This document shows, one piece after another, positions 2,545 through 38,635 of a DNA stretch of 40,878 nucleotides. The notes under the pieces were generated by a model that saw only the letters and a list, made by a program, of their open reading frames with translations, made no database searches and was not told where the DNA came from. The first letter of the stretch is position 1. Each line of letters starts with the position of its first letter. Made by a program: the position numbers and the translations under genes. The stretch spans positions 1 through 40,878 of the IMG/VR virus record IMGVR_UViG_2713896799_000014. One strand, written 5' to 3'. The stretch comes from a virus. Its lineage: Duplodnaviria > Heunggongvirae > Uroviricota > Caudoviricetes.

Positions 2545-4503
2545 TTAACCTATTTTTGTGTAGGTCCAATTAAAAGTGCCTGTGCCCTGGCTTGTAATGG
2601 TTACAATTCTCCCTGTTGCTGAAAAACTAAGAAATGCTGCTATTTTTAACGCAACAAGAATTAGCTTATCTCCATCATACATTGCCAGTTGTGTAGATGC
2701 GTAATTTTCTCCGCTTCCAGCCCCCCATACGCTAATAATGTAAGTACCTTGCGAATCTGGTATAGAGAAAAGTGTTGTCGGAGTATTTTCAGCCACAGCA
2801 GTAGAGCCTTTACTGGTAGAGAAGCATGATGTTTGCAATCCTTCCTTAGATGTTATTTGTGAATAACCATCTACGATAAGTCCTGTTTTTTTAGGGCAGT
2901 CATACCATGATACATCACCAGTACTTAGCGTACTTAAAACAGGAGTTCCTGTAGTGGTTGCTCTGAACCGGCTATTAAAGACACTTATTTTAGCTGTGTC
3001 TATTGCATGTAACATAATGGGATACCCAGACCCAGTATATGCAACTGTGTTGTTGTCAGATAAATCATCTTCTGATGACTCAATTTTAACATCGCTGCTA
3101 CCTGACGCCCTGATGTAGGAAACTACACCAGCATCACTTGGCGCAACACTTCGCATGCTGTTCTGATGTGCAGTCAGGCCAGAAATGCCACCACTACTAT
3201 TTTCGAAATGGAATAGTGCTGCCTCTCCATAACCATCTGTAGAGATGGTGTTACCCTCCGCATCAAAACCAATAATGTTAAAACTATGTGTGTTAAGAAC
3301 ATGAACGCCAGCCCCACCAAGCGAACCTGCGTTTAACGAAATATTTGATCCATCCATGGCACAGTTAATCATTGTAGCTGCAAAGACAGAACCAAACTGA
3401 TATGGTGATATACATCCAGATGTATAACATCTTTCCATCAGAATGGTAGTGCCAGTTCCTTTTGTAAAACCATTATGGCAGTTTCTGGCCCACACATTCG
3501 TAAGTTTTGTCAAGTATGTGCCAGTCTGATCATTAAAGCATGACCATGCACCATGAACTGTACAGTTTTTAATTTCAGACATTTCCAAGCTTGTTGAATT
3601 TGGAATTGTCGAGTAGAAATTAAATGCAATTTTCCCACCATCATTTTCAGGATTCGTTGGTGTGGTTCCTGGATCATAGAAAATATAAAGACCATCAATA
3701 AAAATCTGAATCATTTTTGTCGATAGGGAATCACCTTGATCTAAAGCAAAGGCTGAAATATTACCAATAATAGACATAAATGATTGCGCTCTATTTATTG
3801 TATCAGTTCCCTCTCCAACAATCCTAACGGAGTTTTTCAGAAAAATAGTTGAATTATAGTAACCAGTTCCCTTTGGAATAAGCACTGTTTTCCCCGTGTT
3901 ACATGCGGACTGAAGCGCAGCATAATCAACAGATTGAGATAGAGATGAAACAAATGGATATACCATCTGAGCGGCTGATAGTGTTGAAAATATCTCGCTT
4001 AAAGGGTGAAGCGTTCCGTCAATTGTAGCGCCAAAATCAATAACACTTATAGCCTGTGAATTTTTAATGTGCTGTGAAATAGAAGTAGCACCAGTGTACG
4101 GTTGTTTAACTGTAACTAATGCATCCCCCATTCCATCAGCATCGCTTTCTAACTGCTGCTTAAACTGATCAGGGTCATACTTCAGCACATTAGGGAAATA
4201 GAACTGCTGCGCACCATACGCATCGTACACAGCCATAGAATGACCTTGCACAGTTACGAACTTGGCAATCTGTCCATTATATACCGGGTAACCAGCAGCG
4301 TTAATGATGATTGGTTGCGATACAGGAACGTGAGAACCGTCTTCATTCTCCACATAAACCTGAATCCGGTTTTCAGGATTTACCGGGTCAGTGTCAATTT
4401 TTCCGATATAAATTTCTCCATTGGCTACGGCTTTAAAAGAACGCGCCATAGTGAAAAGTTGCGAAGGCATCGATACGATCACATTGGCTGTAATGTCTGT
4501 CAT
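2545..4503 (-). CDS. Tailspike protein (P22 gp9-like N-terminal head-binding domain, divergent receptor-binding domain)
   Basis: N-terminus [29 protein letters not shown] matches P22 gp9 head-binding domain; remainder differs from P22 endorhamnosidase. Confidence 0.85.
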
Positions 4504-24493: not shown

Positions 24494-24553
24494 AAATAAA
24501 AAATCCCGAAACCGTTATGCAGGCTCCTATTACCTGCGAACTGTTTCGGGATT
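24494..24553 (-). terminator. tR' terminator ending the short 6S-like late leader transcript
   Basis: Minus strand AATCCCGAAAC...GTTTCGGGATT followed by TTTTTATTT; matches lambda tR' from memory. Confidence 0.8.
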
Positions 24554-24685
24554 GCATTTGCAGACCTCTCAGCCTGCGATGGTTGGAGTTCCAGACGATA
24601 CGTCGAAGTGACCAACTAGGCGGAATCGGTAGTAAGCGCCGCCTCTTTTTATCTCACTACCACAACGAGCGAATTAACCCATCGT

Positions 24686-24721
24686 TGGGTCAAATTTACC
24701 CAACTTTATTCAAAAAGTCAA
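24686..24721 (-). promoter_or_regulatory. Late promoter pR' with Q-utilisation region
   Basis: Minus strand TTGACT, 17-bp spacer, TAAATT, downstream of Q stop; near-identical to lambda pR' as I recall it. Confidence 0.8.
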
Positions 24722-24763
24722 TATCATGCCGTTAATATGTTGCCATCCGTGGCAATCATGCTG

Positions 24764-25387
24764 CTAACGTGTGACCGCATTCAAAATGTTGTCTGCGATT
24801 GACTCTTCTTTGTGGCATTGCACCACCAGAGCGTCATACAGCGGCTTAACAGTGCGTGACCAGGTGGGTTGAGTAAGGTTTGGGATTAGCATCGTTACAG
24901 CGCGATATGCGGCGCTTGCTGGCATTCTTGAATAGCCGACACCTTTGCATCTTCCGCATTCTTTCTCAACAACTCTCCCCCACAGCTCTGTTTTTGATAT
25001 ATCAACCGCACGGCCTGTACCGTGACAATCTCTGCATCTTGCGCCCGGCGTCGCGGCACTACGGCAATAATCCGCATAAGCGAATGTTGCGAGCACTTGC
25101 AGTACCTTTGCCTTAGTATTTCCTTCAAGCTTTGCCACACCACGGTATTTCCCCGATACCTTGTGTGCAAATTGCATCAGATAGTTGATAGCCTTTTGTT
25201 TGTCGTTCTGGCTGAGTTCGTGCTTACCACAGAATGCAGCCATTCCGAATCCGGCTTGTGATTGCGCCATCCCCATAGCAGCCATCACATCAGTACCGGA
25301 AAGAGAGTCAGAAGCCGTGGCCCGTGGTGAGTCACTCATCATCGGGCTTTTTGGCGAATGAAATTTAGCTACGCTTTCGAGTCTCAT
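24764..25387 (-). CDS. Q: Late antiterminator Q
   Basis: 207 aa; [31 protein letters not shown] and zinc-finger CRDCHGTGR...CGRCKG match lambda Q. Confidence 0.95.
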
Positions 25388-26049
25388 GCGCCTTCTCCCT
25401 GTACCTGAATCAATGTGAGGTTTCCGCAGAACACTGCGCCGGTATCGATATACATCTGGTTGGCAAATTTGAGCGGTTTCACTGCTGGCGTATGACCAAA
25501 GATGAACGTGTCCGCTCCTTTGATTTCTTTCACGATCCCGTCTTGTGAGTTGCTGATTCGTTCGCGGTTCCAGATTACCTGCTGATGATCAACTGGCTTT
25601 CCGAACTCGTATTCATCACAAGGATAATCGGCGTGGCAGATGATATATTTTTTATCTTTGCTCACCAGTTCGATGATTAACGGAAGTTCATCTGCTTTAT
25701 GGGCAAGAGCTTTAGCCAGAATTTCTTTGTCGTAATCGAGATTAAAGAACCAGCCACCGCCATTAAGCAGCCAGTGATTGACGTTTCCACGCTCTGATAA
25801 GCCATCAATCATCATTTGCTCATGGTTTCCACGTACAGCTCTGAACCAGGGGAATGTGATTAATTCCAGGCATTCGACGTTCTCTGTACCGCGATCAACC
25901 AAATCGCCAACCGAGATAAGCAGGTCTTTTTTGGTGTCGAATCCTATCGTCTCCAGTTTTTTCATCAGGTTCGTGTAGCATCCGTGCAGATCGCCAACTA
26001 CCCAAATATTTCGGTATTTGCTGCCATCAATTCTTTCGTAATAGCGCAT
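25384..26049 (-). CDS. ninI: Ser/Thr protein phosphatase NinI
   Basis: 221 aa from [25 protein letters not shown]; metallophosphatase motifs GDLHG, GDLVDRG, GNHE. Confidence 0.9.
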
Positions 26050-26233
26050 CTCTTTCACTCCATCCGCGATGAACCATGAGAACGTCGTTGACGATGGCGT
26101 GCATTTTCCCGTCTTTATCATCAACGTATTTTCTGACCGTACCGCGACTACATTTCAGTCTGCGTGCTACTTCTGTCTGGTTTCCGTATGCTTCAACGAG
26201 CATGTCTGGAATGGTTTTTACTGAGAACGTCAT
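26027..26233 (-). CDS. ninH: NinH
   Basis: 68 aa [37 protein letters not shown] matches lambda NinH. Confidence 0.9.
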
Positions 26234-26832
26234 GCGGCCTCACTTCTGCTATTTCGCAGGTCTTTGAGTTTCTGTTGGTACTCTGCCTTGATCGCCTTGC
26301 ACTCTTCGATAGTCCAGCGATGGCGGTTATGGTTTGATTCGATTTCGTCTACTGCTTCCTGCCCGATTCGGTTAATAAGTTCGACGCGATACGGAACGAG
26401 ATTTCCGCTTTTATGCTGGTTGCACACCACGCATTGCTTGTGAATATTGCGTTCATCAAATCGGAGTTGAGGTGCCGCAGAAGTTGTCCGGTAATGTCCG
26501 GCATCCCACTGAGCAGACGTGAGCGTTCCGCACGAGATACATGGTAAGTCGCGGTCTCTTTCTCTGATGAAGGCGTTTACGGCTTGTTGGGCTTGTTTAA
26601 TCCAGTAACTGCGGGGCTTTAAGGCGAGTTTTCGAATCTTCAGTTTATCTTTCTGTTTCTGCTCCTCTCGTCGTAGTTTCTTCTCTGCTGCTTTTTCCGC
26701 TTTTTCGCGTTCTTTACTTCGTCGTTCGAGTGCTATCTTTGTTCCACAAATCTCATTACACCAATATTGATTTTGATATTTTGGTATAAACCATTCATTG
26801 CAACATTTACATTTCCTTCGATAGATTCGCAT
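26230..26832 (-). CDS. ninG: NinG (Rap-like recombination-associated endonuclease), variant N-terminus
   Basis: 200 aa from [15 protein letters not shown] with AAAGGAG upstream; C-terminal 170 aa match lambda NinG. Confidence 0.85.
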
Positions 26833-27909: not shown

Positions 27910-28082
27910 TTCCTCGCACGATATCTTAGCCACCGGATATCCCACAGGTGAGCCGTGTAATTGAAGGTTTTTACGTCAGATTCTTTTGGGATTGGCTTGC
28001 GTTTATTTCTGGAGCGTTTCGTTGGAAGGTATTTGCAGTTTTCGCAGATGATGTCGGTGAAACTTCGTCGCTGTCGTCTCAT
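27906..28082 (-). CDS. ninE: NinE
   Basis: 58 aa from [30 protein letters not shown]; start overlaps ninB stop. Confidence 0.7.
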
Positions 28083-28525
28083 GCCGCCCTCCCTTTTCGT
28101 TGTGACCATTCATACTCTCGCCGGGAGTCATCACTCCACCGCACGTTGCGCTCTGAGCCGAACCAAAACATGATTTCGATAAGCTCAGTCATGCTGGCCT
28201 TTCGCATTTTGCTGGTACGCACGCCAAGCATGACAACGCCACCGTCGATACCAGGAACACTTCGTTGCTCCAGTTTTTTGGTCTTAAGCCACAGGGCAGT
28301 GAACAGGTCTTTCCAGTCTTCCGGTGCCAGCCGTTGACCATGCCATAGCACCTGACGCGAAACATCGTTCAGCATCGGCCACATACGGTCATTCTGCGCT
28401 TTGCTGCGTTTTGGTTCTTTAAGGTGGACTTCGTGGGGTGACTTGTCGTCGATGGGAAGTGAGAGTATTGCGTCTATGGCGTTATTTCTGATTGCTTCGT
28501 TGCGAAGCATGTATATTTGCTTCAT
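28079..28525 (-). CDS. ninB: NinB (Orf-family recombination mediator)
   Basis: 148 aa with LWACL/DVSRQV...WHG-like core resembling lambda NinB. Confidence 0.8.
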
Positions 28526-28826
28526 CGAAATTCTTCTCTTTAATTCCAGCAGCTCTGATAGCTTTCATCACTGCAATTACCGTTTTGTCCTTCCCATCCT
28601 CATGCCCCATCGCATAAGCACCTTCTTCACCATCTTTCCAAAAGTCGTCATTCGATTCGGGCCAGTCGATATCCAGTTCAATAGCTGCTCGCGATGCCTG
28701 CCATGCCTCCCATGCAATCTCGACCTTGATGTGCATAATCTTCATCACGTCACTTGAAACGTGATATTTGTTTTTAAACCATTCTTCAAACTGCTTTCTT
28801 GATTCGTCCATATTCCTCTCCATCAC
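28482..28826 (-). CDS. Hypothetical protein, 114 aa
   Basis: ORF in the nin operon upstream of ninB; no family recognised. Confidence 0.5.
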   Translation of the reverse strand: MMERNMDESRKQFEEWFKNKYHVSSDVMKIMHIKVEIAWEAWQASRAAIELDIDWPESNDDFWKDGEEGAYAMGHEDGKDKTVIAVMKAIRAAGIKEKNFDEANIHASQRSNQK

Positions 28827-29089
28827 CGCTTGAACCAGGTGAAATTAGTAAACTGTGACATGCTTATGCCCATCAGACGCTTAAGCACCCTGTCTCGCGG
28901 GCTTCTCTTTGGCTTAGGCCTGCGATTGTATCGCTCTATAATCGGAAGTCTTGAGGCTTTCCAGTAGCGATAATGCCGTGCGCCTGACTCTTCCAGGTCT
29001 GCATTAATCAATTGAGCCAATGTACTCATCATTCCTCTCCAACAGCGTGCTGGGTTGTTAGTTAAGTGGCGTAAACGTGTAATCTTCAT
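28823..29089 (-). CDS. Hypothetical protein, 88 aa
   Basis: ORF in operon orientation with overlapping stop/start. Confidence 0.45.
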   Translation of the reverse strand: MKITRLRHLTNNPARCWRGMMSTLAQLINADLEESGARHYRYWKASRLPIIERYNRRPKPKRSPRDRVLKRLMGISMSQFTNFTWFKR

Positions 29090-29096
29090 CGTTACC

Positions 29097-29303
29097 TCAA
29101 CTCACAAAACGCCACGCCATTTTTGCTACAGCGACAGGCGCAACACCGATAATCACCCACATGAGAATGCTACCGAAAAGCACACCCACCATGTCTTTAC
29201 CTTCACCTACCAACCGGATAAAACTGCTGGCCACCACAATGAACGTCGCCACCATCCACATAGCACCGAGAATCCTCAATGCAGAGAAAACCAACTCAGC
29301 CAC
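29097..29303 (-). CDS. Small hydrophobic membrane protein, 68 aa
   Basis: Two predicted hydrophobic helices; located between ren and the nin genes. Confidence 0.45.
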   Translation of the reverse strand: MAELVFSALRILGAMWMVATFIVVASSFIRLVGEGKDMVGVLFGSILMWVIIGVAPVAVAKMAWRFVS

Positions 29304-29375
29304 GATTTACTCTCCCCCAAATAAAAAGGCCTGCGATTACCAGCAGGCCTGTTATTAGCTCAGTGATGTAGATGG

Positions 29376-29666
29376 TCATCTTTTAACTCCATATACCGCC
29401 AATACCCGTTTCATCGCGGCACTCTGGCGACACTCCTTAAAAATCAGGTTCGTGCTCATCTTTCCTTCCCGTTCTTCCCTGGTAGCAAACCGGTAATACA
29501 CCGTTCGCCAGACCTTACCTTCGATAACCAGAAGACCTGCCCGTGCCATTTTAGCCGCGGCCTGATTTATGCTGGTTACTGTTGCGCCTGTTAGCGCGGC
29601 AACGTCCGGCGCACAGAAGCTATTATGCGTCCCCAGGTAATGAATAATTGCCTCTTTGCCCGTCAT
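29376..29666 (-). CDS. ren: Ren (protects against Rex exclusion)
   Basis: 96 aa MTGKEAIIHYLGTHNSFCAPDVAALTGATVTSINQAAAKMARAG matches lambda Ren. Confidence 0.9.
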   Translation of the reverse strand: MTGKEAIIHYLGTHNSFCAPDVAALTGATVTSINQAAAKMARAGLLVIEGKVWRTVYYRFATREEREGKMSTNLIFKECRQSAAMKRVLAVYGVKR

Positions 29667-30364
29667 ACACTTGCTCCTTTCAGTCCGAACTTAGCTTTGA
29701 TTTCTGCGATCTTCGCCAGAGCCTGTGCACGATTTAGAGGTCTACCGCCCATGACAGGAAGTTGTTTTACTGGTTCAGGGATCGCCTCACCACGGTTAAT
29801 TCTCGCAGTCATATGGACAAGCTCATCTGCGGCCTTACGGCGTAATTCCGCATCAGTAAGCGCATTGGCCCGCATGTTCTGATACAGGTTGGTAACCAGC
29901 CAGTAGTGCGCGTTTGATTTCCACGGATAAGACTCCGCATCCGGATACAGGCCTCGCTTCCGGCAATACTCGTAAACCATATCAACCAGCTCGCTGACGT
30001 TTGGCAGTCCGGCGATAACGGATGCTTCTTCCCGGCACCATGCAACAAACTGCCCGGGTGATGGCAGAAATGGTCGATTCTGCCGACGGGCTACGCGCAT
30101 TCCTGCGTTAACCTGTTCCATTGTGGTGATCCCGTTTTCCCGGAAAGCCAGCACCCACTGGCGGCGGATTTCGTTCAGTTCGTTCTGGTCCCGGTTAGCC
30201 AGGCTCGCCGGGAAAGTTGCCAGTAACTGGCTGAACACACCATTGATGATCTGCGCTACCTGTTGTACCTGCGGCTTTTCGTCGTACTGTTCCGGCATGT
30301 TGTTGGCGATCCGACGCATCTGCTCACGGTCAAAGTTAACCATCTGTGCGGCGATGTTTTTCAT
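29663..30364 (-). CDS. P: Replication protein P (DnaB helicase loader)
   Basis: 233 aa matching lambda P. Confidence 0.95.
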   Translation of the reverse strand: MKNIAAQMVNFDREQMRRIANNMPEQYDEKPQVQQVAQIINGVFSQLLATFPASLANRDQNELNEIRRQWVLAFRENGITTMEQVNAGMRVARRQNRPFLPSPGQFVAWCREEASVIAGLPNVSELVDMVYEYCRKRGLYPDAESYPWKSNAHYWLVTNLYQNMRANALTDAELRRKAADELVHMTARINRGEAIPEPVKQLPVMGGRPLNRAQALAKIAEIKAKFGLKGASV

Positions 30365-31260
30365 AAATCCACCCCGTAAATCCAGTCAGTGTTTGTCAGG
30401 TCGAGTTTTGGTTTGCTGGCTGTCACGCCTGCCTGTTGCTTGTTACGGTTGATTTCGAGCTGGGTCCACTTGTCGCGGAGTTTGGCCGGACTCAGCACGT
30501 TACCGGACCAGAAGTTGTCCTGGCAGGCCCAGCGGAAAAGCACACACATATCGCGGTGGTTACGTCCGTCACGTTCACGCATCAGGCGGATATCGTTAGC
30601 CCACCCAGCAAAATTCGGTTTTCTGGCTGATGGCGCGATGGTCTTCACCATGTCAAACATCCACTCTGCGGCGGTCAGGTCTTCTGCTGTTCCCCACTTG
30701 CTGCCGCTCTGAATTGCAGCATCCGGTTTAACCACAGAAAGATCGTTTTCTGGCTGGTCAGAGGATTCGCCAGAATTCTCGGACGAATAATCTTTTCTTT
30801 TTTCTTTTGTAATAGTGTCTTTTGTGTCCCCCTGTTTTGAGGGATAGCAATCCCCCAATTTGAGGGATGTTTTATCCCTCGTTTTAGGGGATTTTCCCTC
30901 GTTTTGAGGGATACACCATTCTGAGATGTTTTTATTTGGTCCAAACATGCCGCCTTGCTGCTTGATAATATTCATTCTGACGAGTTCTAACTTGGCTTCA
31001 TTGCACCGTTTGACAGGTAACTTTGTAATCTCGCTAAGTTGAGAATCGGTGATTCTGTCCATTGGTTTATTCCACCCATAGGTTTTACGCAGAATGGCAA
31101 GCAGCACTTTAAACTGTCGCTTGGTCAGATCTGCGCCCGAATAAGCCTCAAGCAGCATATTTGATAGTCTGGCGTAACCATCATCGAGATCTGCCACATT
31201 ACGCTCCTGTCCGGCAAAGTTACCTCTGCCGAAGTTGAGTATTTTTGCTGTATTTGTCAT
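30361..31260 (-). CDS. O: Replication initiator protein O
   Basis: 299 aa matching lambda O; contains ori iterons internally. Confidence 0.95.
   Translation of the reverse strand: MTNTAKILNFGRGNFAGQERNVADLDDGYARLSNMLLEAYSGADLTKRQFKVLLAILRKTYGWNKPMDRITDSQLSEITKLPVKRCNEAKLELVRMNIIKQQGGMFGPNKNISEWCIPQNEGKSPKTRDKTSLKLGDCYPSKQGDTKDTITKEKRKDYSSENSGESSDQPENDLSVVKPDAAIQSGSKWGTAEDLTAAEWMFDMVKTIAPSARKPNFAGWANDIRLMRERDGRNHRDMCVLFRWACQDNFWSGNVLSPAKLRDKWTQLEINRNKQQAGVTASKPKLDLTNTDWIYGVDL
30825..30950. other. Replication origin: four ~19-bp iterons plus adjacent AT-rich tract, inside O
   Basis: Direct repeats of TCCCTC-N-TTTGAGGGA type at about 30827, 30850, 30872, 30893, then AT-rich GATGTTTTTATTTGG. 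Confidence 0.8.
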
Positions 31261-31292
31261 AATGACTCCTGTTGATAGATCCAGTAATGACC

Positions 31293-31586
31293 TCAGAACT
31301 CCATCTGGATTTGTTCAGAACGCTCGGTTGCCGCCGGGCGTTTTTTATTGGTGAGAATCGCAGCAACTTGTCGCGCCAATCGAGCCATGTCGTCGTCAAC
31401 GACCCCCCATTCAAGAACAGCAAGCAGCATTGAGAACTTTGGAATCCAGTCTCTCTTCCACCTGCTTATCTGCGACTTATCAACTCCCACAGCTTCCGCT
31501 GTCTTCTCAGTTCCAAGCATTGCGATTTTGTTAAGCAACGCACTCTCGATTCGTAGAGCCTCGTTGCGTTTGTTTGCACGAACCAT
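31293..31586 (-). CDS. cII: Transcriptional activator cII
   Basis: 97 aa MVRANKRNEALRIESALLNKIAMLGTEKTAEAVGVDKSQISRWKRDWIPK matches lambda cII. Confidence 0.95.
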   Translation of the reverse strand: MVRANKRNEALRIESALLNKIAMLGTEKTAEAVGVDKSQISRWKRDWIPKFSMLLAVLEWGVVDDDMARLARQVAAILTNKKRPAATERSEQIQMEF

Positions 31587-31665
31587 ATGTAAGTATTTCC
31601 TTAGATAACAATTGATTGAATGTATGCAAATAAATGCATACACCATAGGTGTGGTTTAATTTGAT

Positions 31666-31697
31666 GCCCTTTTTCAGGGCTGGAATGTGTAAGAGCG
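31666..31697 (-). promoter_or_regulatory. nutR (boxA plus boxB hairpin)
   Basis: Minus strand CGCTCTTAC and GCCCTGAAAAAGGGC between cro and cII. Confidence 0.8.
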
Positions 31698-31705
31698 GGA
31701 ATGTC

Positions 31706-31921
31706 TTAAGCGGCTTTGTGTTCCGGAGGGAACACGTCATCAAGACTGACTTTTGCGCCTAACTTGTTTAGGCATGCAACAAGAGCGCGGCATGTTTTAA
31801 GGTCTGGGAAGCGACGACCAGATTCCCAATGCCCAATAGCTCCCTGTGTGCATCCAACCGCCTTAGCAAGTGTTGTTTGAGAGATATTCAGTGACTCTCG
31901 ATATTTTCGTAGGTTGCTCAT
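31706..31921 (-). CDS. cro: Cro-like HTH repressor (non-lambda immunity)
   Basis: 71 aa from MSNLRKYRESLNISQTTLAKAVGCTQGAIGHWESG (XRE-type HTH); GGAGGG RBS; divergent from cI. Confidence 0.75.
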   Translation of the reverse strand: MSNLRKYRESLNISQTTLAKAVGCTQGAIGHWESGRRFPDLKTCRALVACLNKLGAKVSLDDVFPPEHKAA

Positions 31922-32032
31922 ATGCCCTCCATAGTAACCATGAGACAATAATACGATATGTACTTTTGGAATGCAAACAAAAAATACATCTTGTGCATGG
32001 ATGGTTTTAGTACAGAGCGTAATAATAAGGAT
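31922..32032. promoter_or_regulatory. Divergent pR/pRM promoter and operator region
   Basis: 111-bp AT-rich spacer between divergent cro and cI starts; CGATA-N-GTAC-like motifs shared with the pL region; operators not resolved. Confidence 0.5.
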
Positions 32033-32692
32033 ATGAAAATGAAATGGTATGAACTGGCTAGATCCAGAATGAAAGAGCTCGGCATAACTCAAGAGAAGTT
32101 GGCTGAAGAGCTTGGTATGACGCAGGGTGGAATTGGTCACTGGTTGCGCGGATCTCGTCATCCATCTCTTGACGAGATTGGTGTGGTGTTTAAATACCTT
32201 GGTATTGATAACGTCTCATTCAACCACGACGGTACATTTTCACCTGTTGGCGAATACTCATCTGCCCCCGTTAAAAAACAATATGAGTACCCTGTTTTTT
32301 CTCATGTTCAGGCCGGGATGTTCTCGCCTGAGCTTAGAACCTTTACCAAAGGTGATGCGGAGAGATGGGTCAGCACAACCAAAAAAGCCAGTGATTGTGC
32401 GTTTTGGCTTGAAGTTGAAGGTAATTCCATGACCGCGCCAACAGGATCGAAGCCAAGCTTTCCTGACGGGATGTTAATTCTCGTTGACCCCGAGCAGGCT
32501 GTTGAGCCAGGTGATTTCTGCATAGCCAGACTTGGTGGTGACGAGTTTACCTTCAAGAAACTGATCAGGGATAGCGGTCAGGTGTTCCTACAGCCACTAA
32601 ACCCGCAATATCCAATGATTCCATGCAATGATAGCTGTTCCGTAGTAGGGAAAGTTATCGCCAGCCAGTGGCCTGAAGAGACATTTAGTTAA
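32033..32692 (+). CDS. cI: CI repressor with LexA-like S24 autocleavage domain (non-lambda immunity)
   Basis: 219 aa from [28 protein letters not shown] with AAGGA RBS; C-terminal S24 motifs GNSM and FKKL. Confidence 0.85.
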
Positions 32693-32723
32693 CAGCCTCA
32701 CCACTCTAAAACACACAACAATA

Positions 32724-32752
32724 ACCCGACCTTAGCGTCGGGTTTTCTTTTT
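32724..32752 (+). terminator. Rho-independent terminator downstream of cI
   Basis: ACCCGAC-CTTAGC-GTCGGGT followed by TTTTCTTTTT. Confidence 0.7.
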
Positions 32753-32817
32753 CCAAAATATAAACCCATTAAATACAAAGCGTTATAAAAAACTAATTAT
32801 ATTTAGAACATTTTGTA

Positions 32818-32853
32818 TTGACTCGATAAAGTACAAATCGTACTATTTAGCCA
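32818..32853 (+). promoter_or_regulatory. Early leftward promoter pL with putative OL
   Basis: TTGACT, 17-bp spacer containing GTACAAATCGTAC, TACTAT; transcript start region ATCAGCAGGACGCACTGACC as in lambda pL. Confidence 0.75.
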
Positions 32854-32885
32854 TCAGCAGGACGCACTGACCACCATGAAGGTGA

Positions 32886-32916
32886 GGCTCTTAAAAATTA
32901 AGCCCTGAAGAAGGGC
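32886..32916 (+). promoter_or_regulatory. nutL (boxA plus boxB hairpin)
   Basis: GCTCTTAAAAATTAA then GCCCTGAAGAAGGGC, as in lambda nutL. Confidence 0.85.
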
Positions 32917-33114
32917 AGCCTTCAAAGCAGAAGGCTTTGGGATTGGATGAATGAGCAGGCTGATGCTCGACCAATGTATAAACAGCGCTCATGGCAAGCA
33001 GTAACCAATCTGCGCCTCAAGACAGCGTCACTGGTAGTGCGGGCGCTCTAACCAGTAAGCCGGGGTTCAGCGCCGGCCATCCAATCACCAAAGCTAACTG
33101 ACAGGAGAATCCAG

Positions 33115-33447
33115 ATGGATGCACAAACACGCCGCCGCGAACGTCGCGCAGAGAAACAGGCTCAATGGAAAGCAGCAAATCCCCTGTTGGTTGGGGTAAG
33201 CGCAAAACCAGTTAACCGCCCTATTCTCTCGCTGAATCGCAAACCGAAATCACGAGTAGAAAGCGCACTGAATCCGATAGACCTTACAGTGCTGGCTGAA
33301 TACCACGAACAGATTGAAAGCAACCTGCAACGTATTGAACGCAAGAATCAGCGCACATGGTACAGCAAGCCACGCAGTGAAATGGGTGTGACATGCTCAG
33401 GCCGCCAGAAGCAACGCGGAAAATCAATTCCGGCTTATTACGATTGA
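33115..33447 (+). CDS. N: Antiterminator N
   Basis: MDAQTRRRERRAEKQAQWKAANPLLVGVSAKPVNRPILSLNRKPKSRVESALNPIDL matches lambda N incl. arginine-rich motif. Confidence 0.9.
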   Translation: MDAQTRRRERRAEKQAQWKAANPLLVGVSAKPVNRPILSLNRKPKSRVESALNPIDLTVLAEYHEQIESNLQRIERKNQRTWYSKPRSEMGVTCSGRQKQRGKSIPAYYD

Positions 33448-33649
33448 GGTAGTCATGCTCAAGAAAGTCAAACGCCGACTTTACAAAGAAGGTAGATATT
33501 CATGCCAATTGCCAAAATGCGACACAGCAAAATGGAGTGTCGACGATTGGTGTAACTGGATAGATAGATACGGAACTTGGTGGGATAAATAACAGGTAAC
33601 TTAAGCGGATTTATTTTCGCAGCAAACCACTTATTTGAGAGGAATTAAT

Positions 33650-34273
33650 ATGTCATCAATTCGCTTAACTACGAGAATGAAAGAGGAAATCGCTCGTAAC
33701 GCTTTAATTAAGTCTGGGGTTTTCACTGAACTTGAAGAAGTAACAAAGTTAAAGAACCAGCTTGCACTTGACGCCAGAGTTATTGCGTTTGGCGGTAAAA
33801 AGAAAACTGAGGAAGTGGATCAGTTATCATCCAAGTTGGTAGCTATAAGTGAAGAACTTGAAAAGATGGGATGTTCATTTTACTCATACGATTTTCGTTC
33901 TACTTCAATTTATCTGACTGTATCTGGAAGAAGGGTTGGATGGCATTCATATGGGAAAGACGGCAACGGCGAAGATATATTGCTTCCTACTCCGACAAAA
34001 GATAAATGCATGTTTGACGCAGAACACAAAATAACAAAAAGGTTTGATGAAATCTGCGCATTGCAACAAAACCTTGAAGCCTTGAAAAAGGATATCGAAT
34101 CAAATGTATGGGCTGCTTTGAACTCAGTCACAACAGTTAAGCGACTTATTGAAGTTTGGCCTGAAAGCAAAGAATTGCTACCAAAAGAAGCAGATAAAGC
34201 AAGTACAGCACTTCCTGCTTTACGGGTAGAAGATTTGAATAAGATGATTGGACTTCCTTCCGAGGCCGCATAG
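33650..34273 (+). CDS. Hypothetical protein, 207 aa; pL-proximal moron
   Basis: ATG with GAGAGGAA RBS; AT-rich; followed by its own terminator; no family recognised. Confidence 0.55.
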   Translation: MSSIRLTTRMKEEIARNALIKSGVFTELEEVTKLKNQLALDARVIAFGGKKKTEEVDQLSSKLVAISEELEKMGCSFYSYDFRSTSIYLTVSGRRVGWHSYGKDGNGEDILLPTPTKDKCMFDAEHKITKRFDEICALQQNLEALKKDIESNVWAALNSVTTVKRLIEVWPESKELLPKEADKASTALPALRVEDLNKMIGLPSEAA

Positions 34274-34288
34274 TCGGCCTTTATTTTT
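34263..34288 (+). terminator. Rho-independent terminator overlapping stop of the 207-aa gene
   Basis: AGGCCG-CATAGT-CGGCCT followed by TTATTTTT. Confidence 0.6.
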
Positions 34289-34407
34289 GGCATAAACAAC
34301 AGAATAAACACTGCACTGTGTATTCATTCCAACGAGTGAATACACGGAGCAATGTCGCTCGTAACTAAACAGGAGTCGACTTGTTCTGATTATTGGAAAT
34401 CTTCTTT

Positions 34408-34433
34408 GCCCTCCAGTGTGAGGGCATTTTTTT
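34408..34433 (+). terminator. Rho-independent terminator upstream of the 138-aa gene
   Basis: GCCCTC-CAGTGT-GAGGGC followed by ATTTTTTT. Confidence 0.7.
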
Positions 34434-34445
34434 GACGGAGGAATT

Positions 34446-34862
34446 ATGGAAATTACAGATATTCTGGTTAATCCAGATAATTACGACCAATTCAATATCT
34501 CTACTCAATCAGTTGATTTGGGATGTGCAACTGTCAGCGCATGGCTACTTAATGGTAAACAGTTGGATAAATGCCTTGATGCACATATGACGGTTAACAG
34601 CTTCCTTGCAGAAAAAACACACTGGCAAGATGCTGGAGGGAAATATGCTGGATGGCTTGAAAGCATGGGATTTGAATATCAATCTGATGAAGGTTGGTGG
34701 AGCCTTATAGCTGTAACGCCTGAGACAATAGAGTGCTTCGTTAAATACTCAAACGACGATGACTATAAACACCAGGTAGATTCTGCGATAGAAAGATATA
34801 AAAGAAAATCATTCAGCCACGAAATATCATCAGTTCTTGATTTCATAGAAGTCTTCAAATAA
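34446..34862 (+). CDS. Hypothetical acidic protein, 138 aa
   Basis: ORF with GACGGAGGAA RBS; no family recognised. Confidence 0.55.
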   Translation: MEITDILVNPDNYDQFNISTQSVDLGCATVSAWLLNGKQLDKCLDAHMTVNSFLAEKTHWQDAGGKYAGWLESMGFEYQSDEGWWSLIAVTPETIECFVKYSNDDDYKHQVDSAIERYKRKSFSHEISSVLDFIEVFK

Positions 34863-34946
34863 GCCGCCTAAGCGCGGCTTTACCGCATACCAATAACGCT
34901 TCACTCGAGGCGTTTTCGTTATGCAATCAAACAGAAGGAGCATCCT

Positions 34947-35117
34947 ATGCAACAGTTCGCTATTGCAGGGGCGGCATCGGTTCGCCCTTTCAACCCGATT
35001 TTATCGGTGCAGCATTCACGAAAAAATATTTTAACCGGAGCAGACTTTAAACAACCAAGAATGAAAAGTTTGCTCGAAAAGCTTTGGGATATTTTGAAAC
35101 AACAAGGCCGTCCATGA
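34947..35117 (+). CDS. cIII: CIII-like protein (protease inhibitor)
   Basis: 56-aa ORF with AAGGAG RBS; MQQFAIAG...LLEKLWDILKQQGRP resembles lambda CIII. Confidence 0.55.
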   Translation: MQQFAIAGAASVRPFNPILSVQHSRKNILTGADFKQPRMKSLLEKLWDILKQQGRP

Positions 35118-35284
35118 GTTTTACAGATAACTGGTCAGACGAAGAATTCATTCGTCAGATGAAAGAATTAATCGGTAACGAAGGAGATATTCATGTCACT
35201 TGCAACCACAGTGAAGGAGAGCAAGTTACAGAGACGCATGTACACGCAGCAGGCGTTAATGTATCGCCAGAATGGAGATCGTGA
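35114..35284 (+). CDS. Small hypothetical protein at kil-like position
   Basis: 56-aa ORF whose ATG overlaps cIII stop (ATGA); positional only. Confidence 0.35.
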   Translation: MSFTDNWSDEEFIRQMKELIGNEGDIHVTCNHSEGEQVTETHVHAAGVNVSPEWRS

Positions 35285-35371
35285 AGGTGTTCGCGTCTTT
35301 TTAAATGCGGCAAAGACTGAAGTATTAAATCAGCGTTATTTCCTTGGGCCATGTCCATTCTGAGGTGAATT

Positions 35372-36079
35372 ATGGATTTGAACAAATTCGATGAGCCATT
35401 CAGCCCTGAAGATATCGAATGGCGAATACAGCAAAGCGGTAAAACACGCGATGGCAAGGTGTGGGCTATGGTGCTGGCTTATGTCACGAACAGGGCAATC
35501 ATGAAACGCCTGGACGATGTTTGCGGCAAAGCAGGATGGCGCAATGAATACCGCGATATTCCCAACAACGGAGGCGTTGAATGCGGCATATCAATAAAGA
35601 TTGATTCCGAATGGGTAACCAAATGGGATGCAGCTGAAAACACGCAGGTAGAAGCCGTAAAAGGTGGTCGTTCCGGTGCAATGAAGCGCGCTGCCGTTCA
35701 GTGGGGAATCGGTCGGTATCTGTATAACCTTGAGGAAGGTTTCGCACAAACATCTCTCGACAAAAAGCAGGGATGGCACAGGGCAAAACTCAAGGATGGA
35801 ACAGGATTTTACTGGCTCCCTCCATCGCTGCCGGGCTGGGCAATCCCAGCATCAGATAACAAACCATCACCAGAAAATACCAACCAGAAATCTCCATCGG
35901 TTGACTGCGAACAAATCCTGAAAGACTTCAGCGATTATGCATCAACAGAAACTGACAAGAAAAAACTCATCGAGCGTTATCAGCGTGACTGGCAATTAAT
36001 GGCTGGCAACGAGGAGGCGCAGGCTAAATGCGTTCAGGTAATGAACATCAGAGTTAACGAACTAAAACAGGCGGCATAA
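35372..36079 (+). CDS. Rad52/Sak-family single-strand annealing protein
   Basis: 235 aa with WGIGRYLY motif typical of Rad52-like recombinases; GAGGTGA RBS; immediately precedes ssb. Confidence 0.7.
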   Translation: MDLNKFDEPFSPEDIEWRIQQSGKTRDGKVWAMVLAYVTNRAIMKRLDDVCGKAGWRNEYRDIPNNGGVECGISIKIDSEWVTKWDAAENTQVEAVKGGRSGAMKRAAVQWGIGRYLYNLEEGFAQTSLDKKQGWHRAKLKDGTGFYWLPPSLPGWAIPASDNKPSPENTNQKSPSVDCEQILKDFSDYASTETDKKKLIERYQRDWQLMAGNEEAQAKCVQVMNIRVNELKQAA

Positions 36080-36553
36080 ATGGCAAGCAGAGGCGTAAAT
36101 AAGGTGATCATTATTGGTCGCCTTGGGCATGATCCAGAAATCAGATATTCACCATCAGGAACGGCATTTGCAAACCTTACAGTTGCTACGTCAGAACAAT
36201 GGCGTGATAAGCAAACTGGAGAGCAAAAGGAGCAGACGGAGTGGCACCGCGTGGTAATGAGCGGGAAACTGGCAGAAATTGCCAGCGAATATCTGCGAAA
36301 AGGCTCTGAGGTTTATCTTGAAGGCAAATTGCGGACAAGAAAATGGCAGGATCAAAGCGGACAGGATCGGTTCACTACCGAAGTTATCGTAGGCGTTGGT
36401 GGAACCATGCAAATGCTTGGTGGAAAGCAAGGAAGCAATGAACAGTCTTCACCTCAGCGAAATAACGGCCAGCAACAAAGACAGCAATCTCAGCAGCATG
36501 GGAATCACAGCGAACCACCTATGAACTTCGACGATTCGGATATTCCGTTCTAG
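36080..36553 (+). CDS. ssb: Single-stranded DNA-binding protein SSB
   Basis: OB-fold N-terminus [23 protein letters not shown], Gly/Gln-rich linker, acidic tail ending DDSDIPF. Confidence 0.9.
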
Positions 36554-38171: not shown

Positions 38172-38635
38172 CAATTGACTATCAGGCACTGCGTGAGGCG
38201 GCAGAACGTGCAACTCCAGCAATGGAACGCCTGTTAATGTTGCCAGTTGATGATGATTTGTTAAGTGAACAGGAGCTTAAAGATTACGGTGTGGATATTG
38301 ATGCGCTCAACGCCTTCAAATTTCTGACCGGACCAGAAACCGTGCTGGCGCTGCTGGATGAACGGGAAAGAAACCAGCAATACATCAAACGCCGCGACCA
38401 GGAGAACGAGGATATTGCGCTAACGGTAGGGAAACTGCGTGTTGAGCTGGAAGCCGCAGAGAAGCGGATTGCTGACATGGAGGCGCGGGAGGTTGTACTG
38501 CCGCGTGCGCACGATGTTCACCCATTAGGGCCGCAGTCGGCGAAAATTTTTTGTGAGTTTCACCGGAGTATCGTGAACAGATGCGCCGATGAGATTCGCA
38601 AGGTTGGCGTCAAAGTCAGCATCAAGGGGAATTAG
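38168..38635 (+). CDS. Ead/Ea22-like protein
   Basis: ATG overlaps upstream stop (ATGA); coiled-coil-rich sequence resembling prophage Ead/Ea22-family proteins. Confidence 0.5.
   Translation: MTIDYQALREAAERATPAMERLLMLPVDDDLLSEQELKDYGVDIDALNAFKFLTGPETVLALLDERERNQQYIKRRDQENEDIALTVGKLRVELEAAEKRIADMEAREVVLPRAHDVHPLGPQSAKIFCEFHRSIVNRCADEIRKVGVKVSIKGN

Follow-up and report, generated by a model that had tools for sequence, protein, structure and literature searches.

Which immunity specificity is carried by a phage whose early genes are close to those of lambda but whose switch region is not? The question is raised by positions 31706-32916 of IMG/VR record IMGVR_UViG_2713896799_000014, a Caudoviricetes sequence of 40,878 nucleotides that was analysed over its whole length and is called the window below. 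A preliminary description of this DNA had proposed a distinct immunity on a lambda-like chassis. Based on database comparisons we consider it very probable that the segment 31706-32853 represents the VT2-Sakai/Stx2-II type, a standard lambdoid immunity cassette, in a P22-like podovirus with otherwise lambda/434-like early genes. The genes cro (31921-31706, minus strand) and cI (32033-32692, plus strand) are divergent, with three operator sites in the 111-bp gap between them and three at pL, which is the layout of a lambdoid switch. With the VT2-Sakai/Stx2-II type the cassette shares the same Cro, the same repressor DNA-binding domain and recognition helix, and the same operator set. Of the preliminary description, the non-lambda DNA-binding specificity, the lambda-like chassis and the lack of rexAB were upheld, whereas the distinctiveness was not, since the type is already present in the databases and in the literature.

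The cassette has been sequenced and annotated before and is common; it is known, not new. A megablast search with 31650-32900 recovered the whole module at 98.2-99.0% identity over 1,251 bp in the phages Dewey, vB_EcoP-720R6, vB_EcoP-683R2, Louie and phi458 (98.2-98.6% at the DNA level for Dewey and Louie). The same search found cro-cI at about 92% in many Shiga toxin (Stx) phages, including Nil2, 2851, an Stx1-converting phage, Stx2-II, 1717, YYZ-2008 and the PA series. A search of 5,426 complete E. coli genomes found the full compact module in 206, the highest identity being 99.4%, and one E. coli prophage has it joined to a different replication module with the same cII, N and Nmad5 neighbours. 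The repressor is identical to that of Dewey and has about 96-97% identity with cI of the VT2-Sakai type; the cI DNA of the window/Dewey lineage differs from that of the Stx-phage lineage by about 5-9%. Among 50,697 phage records the cI DNA-binding domain was present at an identity of at least 95% in 63, the next group being at or below about 55-80%. The preliminary description had itself named a match to a well-characterised type as the result that would make the locus unremarkable, and in substance such a match was obtained: Cro is 100% identical, the operators are those of GenBank record AP005153 and the module recurs in the 206 genomes; biochemistry of the type's own repressor was not found in the literature. 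Dewey and Louie have been described as temperate, with turbid, self-immune plaques (PMC11990801), and the movement of cI and cro together as a unit is documented in lambdoid phages (PMC9836094). In phi458 (OP434518.1, 8597-10898) the 1,251-bp module extends over 2,302 bp in two pieces, with about 1 kb of extra DNA inside.

The hybrid repressor and its Cro partner

The cI gene encodes a repressor of 219 amino acids with the Pfam domains HTH_3 (E 8e-11) and Peptidase_S24 (E 9e-29), and its two parts have a different relation to lambda. For DNA the comparison was made with blastn against NC_001416, and for lambda proteins with tblastn. The N-terminal DNA-binding domain and linker (32033-32281), with a recognition helix of 11 residues, gave no blastn match to lambda, and only 16 of the first 80 residues (20%) are identical to lambda cI. 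From 32282 onwards the picture changes: 32282-32686 is 93.1% identical to lambda cI (37637-37233), and 133 of the 136 residues from YEYPVF onwards (97.8%) are the same. This C-terminal domain (32282-32692) is of the lambda type, with the oligomerisation region, the Ala-Gly cleavage site and the Ser/Lys residues of self-cleavage. The join between foreign and lambda sequence lies within the inter-domain linker. A phmmer search of the PDB gave 3bdn, the lambda repressor, at E 2e-96 and 8gmu, the C-terminal domain of that protein, at E 2e-89; the alignment is identical across VQAGMF, EGNSMT and FTFKKLIR, which hold the Ala-Gly site and the catalytic Ser and Lys. The same database gave no close solved structure for the N-terminal domain. 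The statement in the preliminary description that cI is unrelated to that of lambda was thus not supported, as only the DNA-binding domain differs. Previously, the VT2-Sakai-type repressor, which corresponds to 'Clade I' of the Stx-phage CI proteins, has been noted as the closest to lambda CI, with 61% identity overall (PMC8951638).

Between the window and lambda, the C-terminal domain shows 26 synonymous and 3 non-synonymous codon differences. Pairwise comparison of the lambda, Stx-phage and window/Dewey types gave a similar result, with 7-9% difference in DNA made up of 26-33 synonymous and 1-4 non-synonymous codons. Because almost all differences are synonymous, the domain is held in common by heteroimmune phages and is under strong purifying selection. 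The value of the locus lies partly in this domain-level mosaicism, in which the linker connects such a lambda C-terminal domain with a DNA-binding domain of foreign origin. On the N-terminal side, the domain is 96.4% identical to the Stx type by tblastn, within a range of 95-96% across the Stx-phage type. It differs from that of the Stx1-converting phage at three residues (D46S, E47D and V62I), all of them outside the recognition helix, which is unchanged. Two records of this group can be noted here. In the VT2-Sa record AP000363 the cI helix-turn-helix (HTH) is interrupted by an in-frame TAG, read as GMT*GG (at about 3085-3090 of the locus), and the annotated cI is only 510 bp long; the VT2-Sakai record AP000422 matches the N-terminal domain at 96.4%, the same value as the intact Stx-phage sequences.

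Taken together, cI would be a LexA-like two-domain repressor, whose N-terminal HTH is expected to read six 17-bp operators. The lambda-type C-terminal domain would be responsible for dimerisation and for cooperative binding, and also for the RecA-stimulated self-cleavage at Ala-Gly that makes a prophage inducible by the SOS response. Helix 2 reads QEKLAEEL, against QESVADKM in lambda, and where lambda has E34 and D38 its residues are likewise acidic. In lambda E34 and D38 contact sigma-70, according to positive-control mutants, and the acidic residues of the present repressor may serve the same contact.

The start of cI is annotated differently in the databases. Dewey, AP005153 and RefSeq WP_014532159.1 all give a protein of 231 amino acids that begins at ATG 31997, which is inside OR2 of the right operator region (OR) and upstream of the predicted start of pRM. 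This database start is probably wrong, which is the annotation point to be taken from the locus. A start at ATG 32033 (219 amino acids) or at ATG 32039 (217 amino acids, 7 nt downstream of the Shine-Dalgarno (SD) sequence AAGGA) is more plausible, because ATGAAAATGAA at the cI start is conserved even in the divergent Salmonella phage epsilon34 and because of the position of the predicted pRM -10.

The cro gene (31706-31921, minus strand) encodes a protein of 71 amino acids with an HTH_3 domain (Pfam, E 4e-12), a Cro of non-lambda type. All 71 residues are identical to VT2-Sa Cro. A tblastn search of the window with lambda Cro was negative even when matches up to E 10 were allowed, in agreement with the earlier view that the two are unrelated. 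Cro and the N-terminal domain of cI are paralogous (BLASTP E 6e-13), and both contain the recognition-helix motif TQG(G/A)IGHW (TQGxIGHW), as would be expected if both read the same operators. Cro is predicted to be a small all-helical HTH protein that would bind the operators of cI and keep pRM off in lytic growth. Its best PDB match was 28tn_A, an 82-residue chain titled only 'lambda repressor-like protein' (E 4.5e-17), with about half of the residues identical.

Operators and promoters of the switch

The operator repeat was found to be a 17-bp pseudo-palindrome of about AAGTACA-N3-TGTACTT, present six times, three at OR and three at the left operator region (OL). We scanned the whole 40.9-kb window with a palindromised position weight matrix (PWM) built solely from the six 17-bp 'putative operators' annotated in AP005153, the record of the Stx1-converting phage. 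The five best matches were all in OR and OL, and the sixth site, OR2, took rank 8. OR1 (TAATACGATATGTACTT, 31949-31965) scored 18.2 bits, the second-best value in the window, and is conserved with the Stx phages. OR2 (AAATACATCTTGTGCAT, 31982-31998; 11.0 bits) aligns to OR2 of AP005153 and has its centre 43 bp upstream of ATG 32033. OR3 (TAGTACAGAGCGTAATA, 32008-32024; 15.0 bits) equals the Stx-phage OR3 except at position 1. On the other side, OL3 (AAATACAAAGCGTTATA, 32771-32787; 14.9 bits) is identical at 16 of 17 positions to an AP005153 OL site, OL2 (TAGAACATTTTGTATTG, 32804-32820; 16.3 bits) overlaps the pL -35 and is conserved while its flanking spacers diverge, and OL1 (AAGTACAAATCGTACTA, 32829-32845; 20.4 bits, the best in the window) overlaps the pL spacer and -10. 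The degenerate 17-mer WARWACRNNNYGTDHWD matched at these six sites alone, at OR1 and OL1 on both strands, giving 8 matches against 0.62 expected, a number reached in 0 of 100 shuffles; as the pattern was derived from the sites themselves, its absence elsewhere is the informative point.

The six operators align one-to-one with the AP005153 annotations, with 93 of 102 positions identical. The nine differing positions contrast with 22 of 49 in the spacers between the operators (Fisher p = 8e-7), and four of the nine are central bases outside the half-sites. OL1, OL2 and OL3 are centred at about -16, -41 and -74 relative to the pL start. The distance from OR1 to OR2 is 33 bp, about one helical turn more than the 24 bp of lambda, and this leaves OR2 clear of the pR -35; OR2 and OR3 are 26 bp apart. 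A PWM of the six lambda operators reached at most 3.1 bits in OR and OL, compared with 13.6-22.5 bits on the sites of lambda itself, which bears out the claim that the operator motifs differ from those of lambda.

As a common operator element the preliminary description had suggested CGATA-N-GTAC, and here it was mistaken about the unit that is repeated. The motif occurs twice (0.17 expected) but with unequal gaps of 1 nt and 2 nt, the CGATA of the pL copy lies in an unconserved spacer (CTCGATA, against CCAAGTG in the Stx phages), and the G in OR1 is an A in the Stx phages. What the motif captures is the GTAC core of the operator half-site.

The promoter pR was read by eye on the minus strand (31948-31976), with a -35 TTGCAT (31976-31971), a 17-bp spacer and a -10 TATTAT (31953-31948); its function is predicted. 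A promoter scan agreed on this -10 but paired it with another -35, TTTGCA, across an 18-bp spacer (31977-31948). OR1 covers the -10 and spacer of pR, and the SD sequence (GGAGGG) and the ATG of cro are found downstream. On the plus strand, pL (32818-32853) was given by the scan (9/12), with a -35 TTGACT (32818-32823), a 17-bp spacer, a -10 TACTAT (32841-32846) and a start at about 32853. At that start stands the lambda-like leader ATCAGCAGG, as had been described, with lambda homology from 32852.

For pRM (32021-32033, plus strand) we predict a -10 AATAAT (32021-32026) and a transcript that begins with, or close to, the A of ATG 32033. The promoter scan did not list pRM, which is too weak, as expected for an activator-dependent promoter. 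In an alignment of the OR regions, the corresponding hexamer of epsilon34 is a consensus TATAAT, and it too stands 6 nt ahead of ATGAAAATGAA. Since the -10 is six bases before ATG 32033, the maintenance transcript of cI is probably leaderless, as in lambda. With OR2 centred about 43 bp ahead of the start, and OR3 lying over the pRM -10, the arrangement would have the geometry of lambda.

From these positions the working of the switch can be predicted. OR1 and OL1 lie over the -10 and spacer of pR and pL, and OL2 over the pL -35; because of this overlap, bound repressor would shut off both early operons, that is, N leftward and cro-cII-O-P-Q rightward. OR2 adjoins the weak pRM -35 and OR3 overlaps its -10, so that occupancy of these sites would give positive and then negative autoregulation. 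The lambda-identical CII is expected to act at pRE, with establishment transcription running through cro (antisense) into cI, and the cI transcript would stop at a terminator homologous to that after lambda rexB.

The empty slot, the lambda-like chassis and alternative readings

Directly after the cI stop (32692) an intrinsic terminator was identified by a terminator scan at 32723-32754 on the plus strand, with a stem at 32723-32744 and the T-run TTTTCTTTTT (-12.4 kcal/mol, z -3.8), followed by pL (32818-32846). The distance from the cI stop to OL3 is only 78 bp and is occupied by this terminator. The succession of cI, terminator and pL was therefore as earlier described, and so was the lack of rexAB: over the whole window neither RexA nor RexB gave a significant match, the best tblastn E values being 0.29 and 0.55. 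The terminator is homologous to the one just after rexB in lambda (32715-32750 with lambda 35834-35799, blastn), and its stem has a compensatory G:C to A:T change, from CCCGGC/GCCGGG in lambda to CCCGAC/GTCGGG here. This homology is consistent with rexAB being a cassette that was inserted between cI and a pre-existing terminator, or with a clean loss of rexAB. Elsewhere the slot between cI and OL holds rexAB (lambda), hex (434), gp45/gp44 (epsilon34) or several open reading frames (ORFs; Stx phages), and in Dewey it is empty as in the window. The empty slot is a familiar moron pattern and not a lesion.

The genome around the cassette is that of a P22-like (Lederbergvirus-type) podovirus. Its first 20 kb, with portal, coat, ejection proteins and tailspike, is 95-96% identical to Dewey, CurroJimenez, IME10 and Louie over about half of the length. 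The second half is a mosaic, about 36% of which aligns with lambda at 97%. The map is reversed relative to the conventional lambda map: the minus strand encodes O, P, cII and cro, and the plus strand cI and N. By blastn, 29310-31699 matched lambda 40636-38247 at 98.8% (ren, P, O, cII and nutR), 32852-32941 matched 35583-35494 at 97.8%, beginning at the pL transcript start and spanning nutL, 33086-33431 matched lambda N at 92.5%, and 24496-26748 matched 44781-42525 at 97.5% (ninG-ninI, Q and pR'). At the protein level the identities by tblastn were 100% for cII and O, 99.1% for P, 99.0% for ren, 99.5% for Q and 93.9% for N. The preliminary description had named N, nutL, nutR, cII, O, P, Q and pR' as lambda-like, and these values of 92.5-100% agree with it. 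In the control region lambda homology is interrupted at 31700-32281 (cro, the space between it and cI, and the first third of cI itself) and at 32751-32851 (OL/pL, upstream of the pL start). Homology to phage 434 reaches the last four codons of cro (KAA-stop, 31706-31717), which the two phages have in common, and resumes at 32840 near the pL start (AGCCATCAGCAGG); the junctions are therefore the same, within a few bases, as those of the classical imm434 substitution.

The individual elements of this chassis can be placed as follows. The cII gene (31293-31586, minus strand; Pfam Phage_CII) is identical to that of lambda, and the CII site of pRE, TTGC-N6-TTGC, is found at 31564-31577 on the plus strand; phage 434, 97.7% identical in this part, has both the CII site and pRE annotated at the corresponding place. 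The boxB of nutR, GCCCTGAAAAAGGGC (31666-31680, minus strand), was read directly within the 98.8% match, which covers lambda nutR (38265-38281), and similarly the boxB of nutL, GCCCTGAAGAAGGGC (32902-32916, plus strand), within the 97.8% match covering lambda nutL (35518-35534). The antiterminator N (33115-33447, plus strand; Pfam N36, E 2e-26) is of the lambda/434 type. Lambda-type cIII, kil, sieB, ral and ea10 proteins were not detectable by tblastn in 29000-36500; the pL operon has instead an Erf-like annealing protein (35372-36079, phrog_1097) and several ORFs of unknown function. Just after N and a DUF5484 ORF of 45 amino acids (33455-33592, plus strand), at the position of sieB/ral in lambda, this operon carries a gene of 207 amino acids (33650-34273, plus strand) for a 'nucleotide modification associated domain 5' protein (Nmad5, PF18757, E 1e-70; phrog_1965, function unknown). 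The pairing of N and Nmad5 recurs in an E. coli prophage with a different replication module. No Rfam family matched in 28000-36500 at gathering thresholds.

Several points weigh against the assignment to the VT2-Sakai/Stx2-II type or against details of the switch. OR2 is weak (11 bits, rank 8) and is 33 bp from OR1 instead of the 24 bp of lambda, the cI start codon is ambiguous between 32033, 32039 and the annotated 31997, and the pRM call is based on a weak -10 and the comparison with epsilon34. GenBank labels the AP005153 sites as 'putative', and literature searches found no footprint or electrophoretic mobility shift assay (EMSA) of a VT2-Sakai-type repressor on its own operators. The Stx-phage operator regions named as characterised in a 2021 review are those of 933W and H-19B, and the sole in-vitro data found use lambda CI on VT2-Sa sites (PMC10742460). 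These data bear on whether the phage could be lambda-immune or partly cross-immune with lambda. Lambda CI did bind the VT2-Sa operators in EMSA, and the C-terminal domain of the present repressor is 97.8% identical to that of lambda. However, the apparent dissociation constants were 3.7-6.4 uM, weaker than or at best like the weakest site of lambda itself and 10- to 30-fold below lambda OR1/OL1 (0.2-0.35 uM; PMC10742460). With a DNA-binding domain of 20% identity, a lambda PWM that does not exceed 3.1 bits in OR and OL, and a Cro of another type, we regard immunity to lambda as extremely unlikely.

Hardly more credible is a new specificity that matches no described lambdoid type, as the database matches have already largely refuted it. 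It is true that cro, the cI DNA-binding domain and the operators are unlike those of lambda, and that the window/Dewey lineage has diverged from the Stx lineage by about 5-9% in cI DNA and at 9 of 102 operator positions. Yet Cro is 100% identical to VT2-Sa Cro, none of the three residue differences in the N-terminal domain of cI falls in the recognition helix, and the six operators agree in place and in half-site, four of their nine differences being central; moreover, five deposited phages have the module at 98-99% identity, and 206 complete E. coli genomes contain it. The lack of rexAB next to a terminator that in lambda follows rexB, together with the stop codon inside the cI HTH of the VT2-Sa record AP000363, could point to a decayed or defective immunity region in which rex was deleted by prophage erosion. 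We find this as improbable as lambda immunity: cI and cro are intact, the 26 synonymous against 3 non-synonymous differences in the C-terminal domain indicate purifying selection, and the operators are conserved while the spacers drift. Dewey and Louie have the same compact layout and are viable temperate phages, and since the genes between cI and OL are not the same in 434, epsilon34 and the Stx phages, this is a variable slot and not a lesion. The assignment to a standard cassette of the VT2-Sakai/Stx2-II type thus agrees best with the data.

As such the cassette is a textbook case of lambdoid modular exchange, deposited many times, and carries little weight as a discovery. From its sequence we put forward two consequences jointly, and only tentatively, as we think the combination rather unlikely to hold in full. 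As the C-terminal domain is 98% identical to that of lambda and is under strong purifying selection in three lineages, mixed dimers or oligomers could form with lambda-type repressors in polylysogens, for the window/Dewey as well as the Stx lineages; this would couple the stability and induction of heteroimmune prophages. Additionally, the phage is predicted to be homoimmune with Sp5/Stx2-II-type phages, so that the E. coli carriers (206 of 5,426 genomes) may resist lysogenic conversion. The prediction of shared immunity extends to the non-Stx P22-like coliphages in general, and could affect which strains the Sp5/Stx2-II-type phages convert.

Comparison with known lambdoid immunity regions

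The cassette resembles that of lambda in its divergent cI and cro, in the tripartite OR and OL of 17-bp sites with OR2 about 42 bp upstream of the cI start, and in the pL leader, nutL, nutR, cII and pRE, which are identical or nearly so. It differs in the cI DNA-binding domain, which has 20% identity and is about 17 residues shorter at its N-terminal end, in a Cro of unrelated type, and in the operator consensus, which is AAGTACA-N3-TGTACTT in the window and TATCACCGCCAGTGGTA in lambda. The window is also without rexAB, with OL about 0.8-0.9 kb from OR compared with about 2.4 kb in lambda. It does not belong to imm-lambda, as neither the DNA-binding domain, nor Cro, nor the operators are those of that type. 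Phage 434 has the same cassette junctions, an HTH-type Cro and an accessory gene (hex) between cI and OL. However, its operators are of 14 bp, and its cI is about 32% identical to that of the window, with a C-terminal domain that is not lambda-like.

The nearest divergent relatives are the Salmonella phages epsilon34 and g341c, with a cI of about 70% identity overall (55% in the N-terminal and 79% in the C-terminal part) and a Cro of 46%. They have the ATGAAAATGAA cI start region and the -10 position as in the window, but two ORFs between the repressor and OL. Their recognition helices and annotated sites differ as well, and their immunity is therefore probably different.

Much closer are the Stx phages VT2-Sakai/VT2-Sa (Sp5), Stx2-II, the Stx1-converting phage (AP005153), Nil2, 2851, 1717, YYZ-2008 and the PA series, which have the same Cro (100%), a cI of about 96-97% identity and a lambda-like C-terminal domain. 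Their six 17-bp operators come in the same order with nearly the same spacing, and the overlap with pL and pR is alike. Between cI and OL, where only the terminator is present in the window, these phages carry additional ORFs amounting to about 1.5 kb. Their N is HK97-like, their O is HK022-like, the annotation of their P varies between records (lambda- or HK022-like), and stx is present. The cro-cI DNA is 92% identical, and 9 of 102 operator positions differ.

The closest match is with the P22-like coliphages Dewey and Louie (BASEL study), vB_EcoP-720R6, vB_EcoP-683R2 and phi458, which have the same compact cro-OR-cI-terminator-OL/pL module, the same lambda-type nutR and nutL flanks and the same virion type. 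E212, also a P22-like coliphage, was matched through the N-terminal domain of cI alone (96.4%). Dewey and its relatives differ from the window in their replication modules and accessory genes; in Dewey a DnaC-like loader together with an HNH gene takes the place of lambda O/P.

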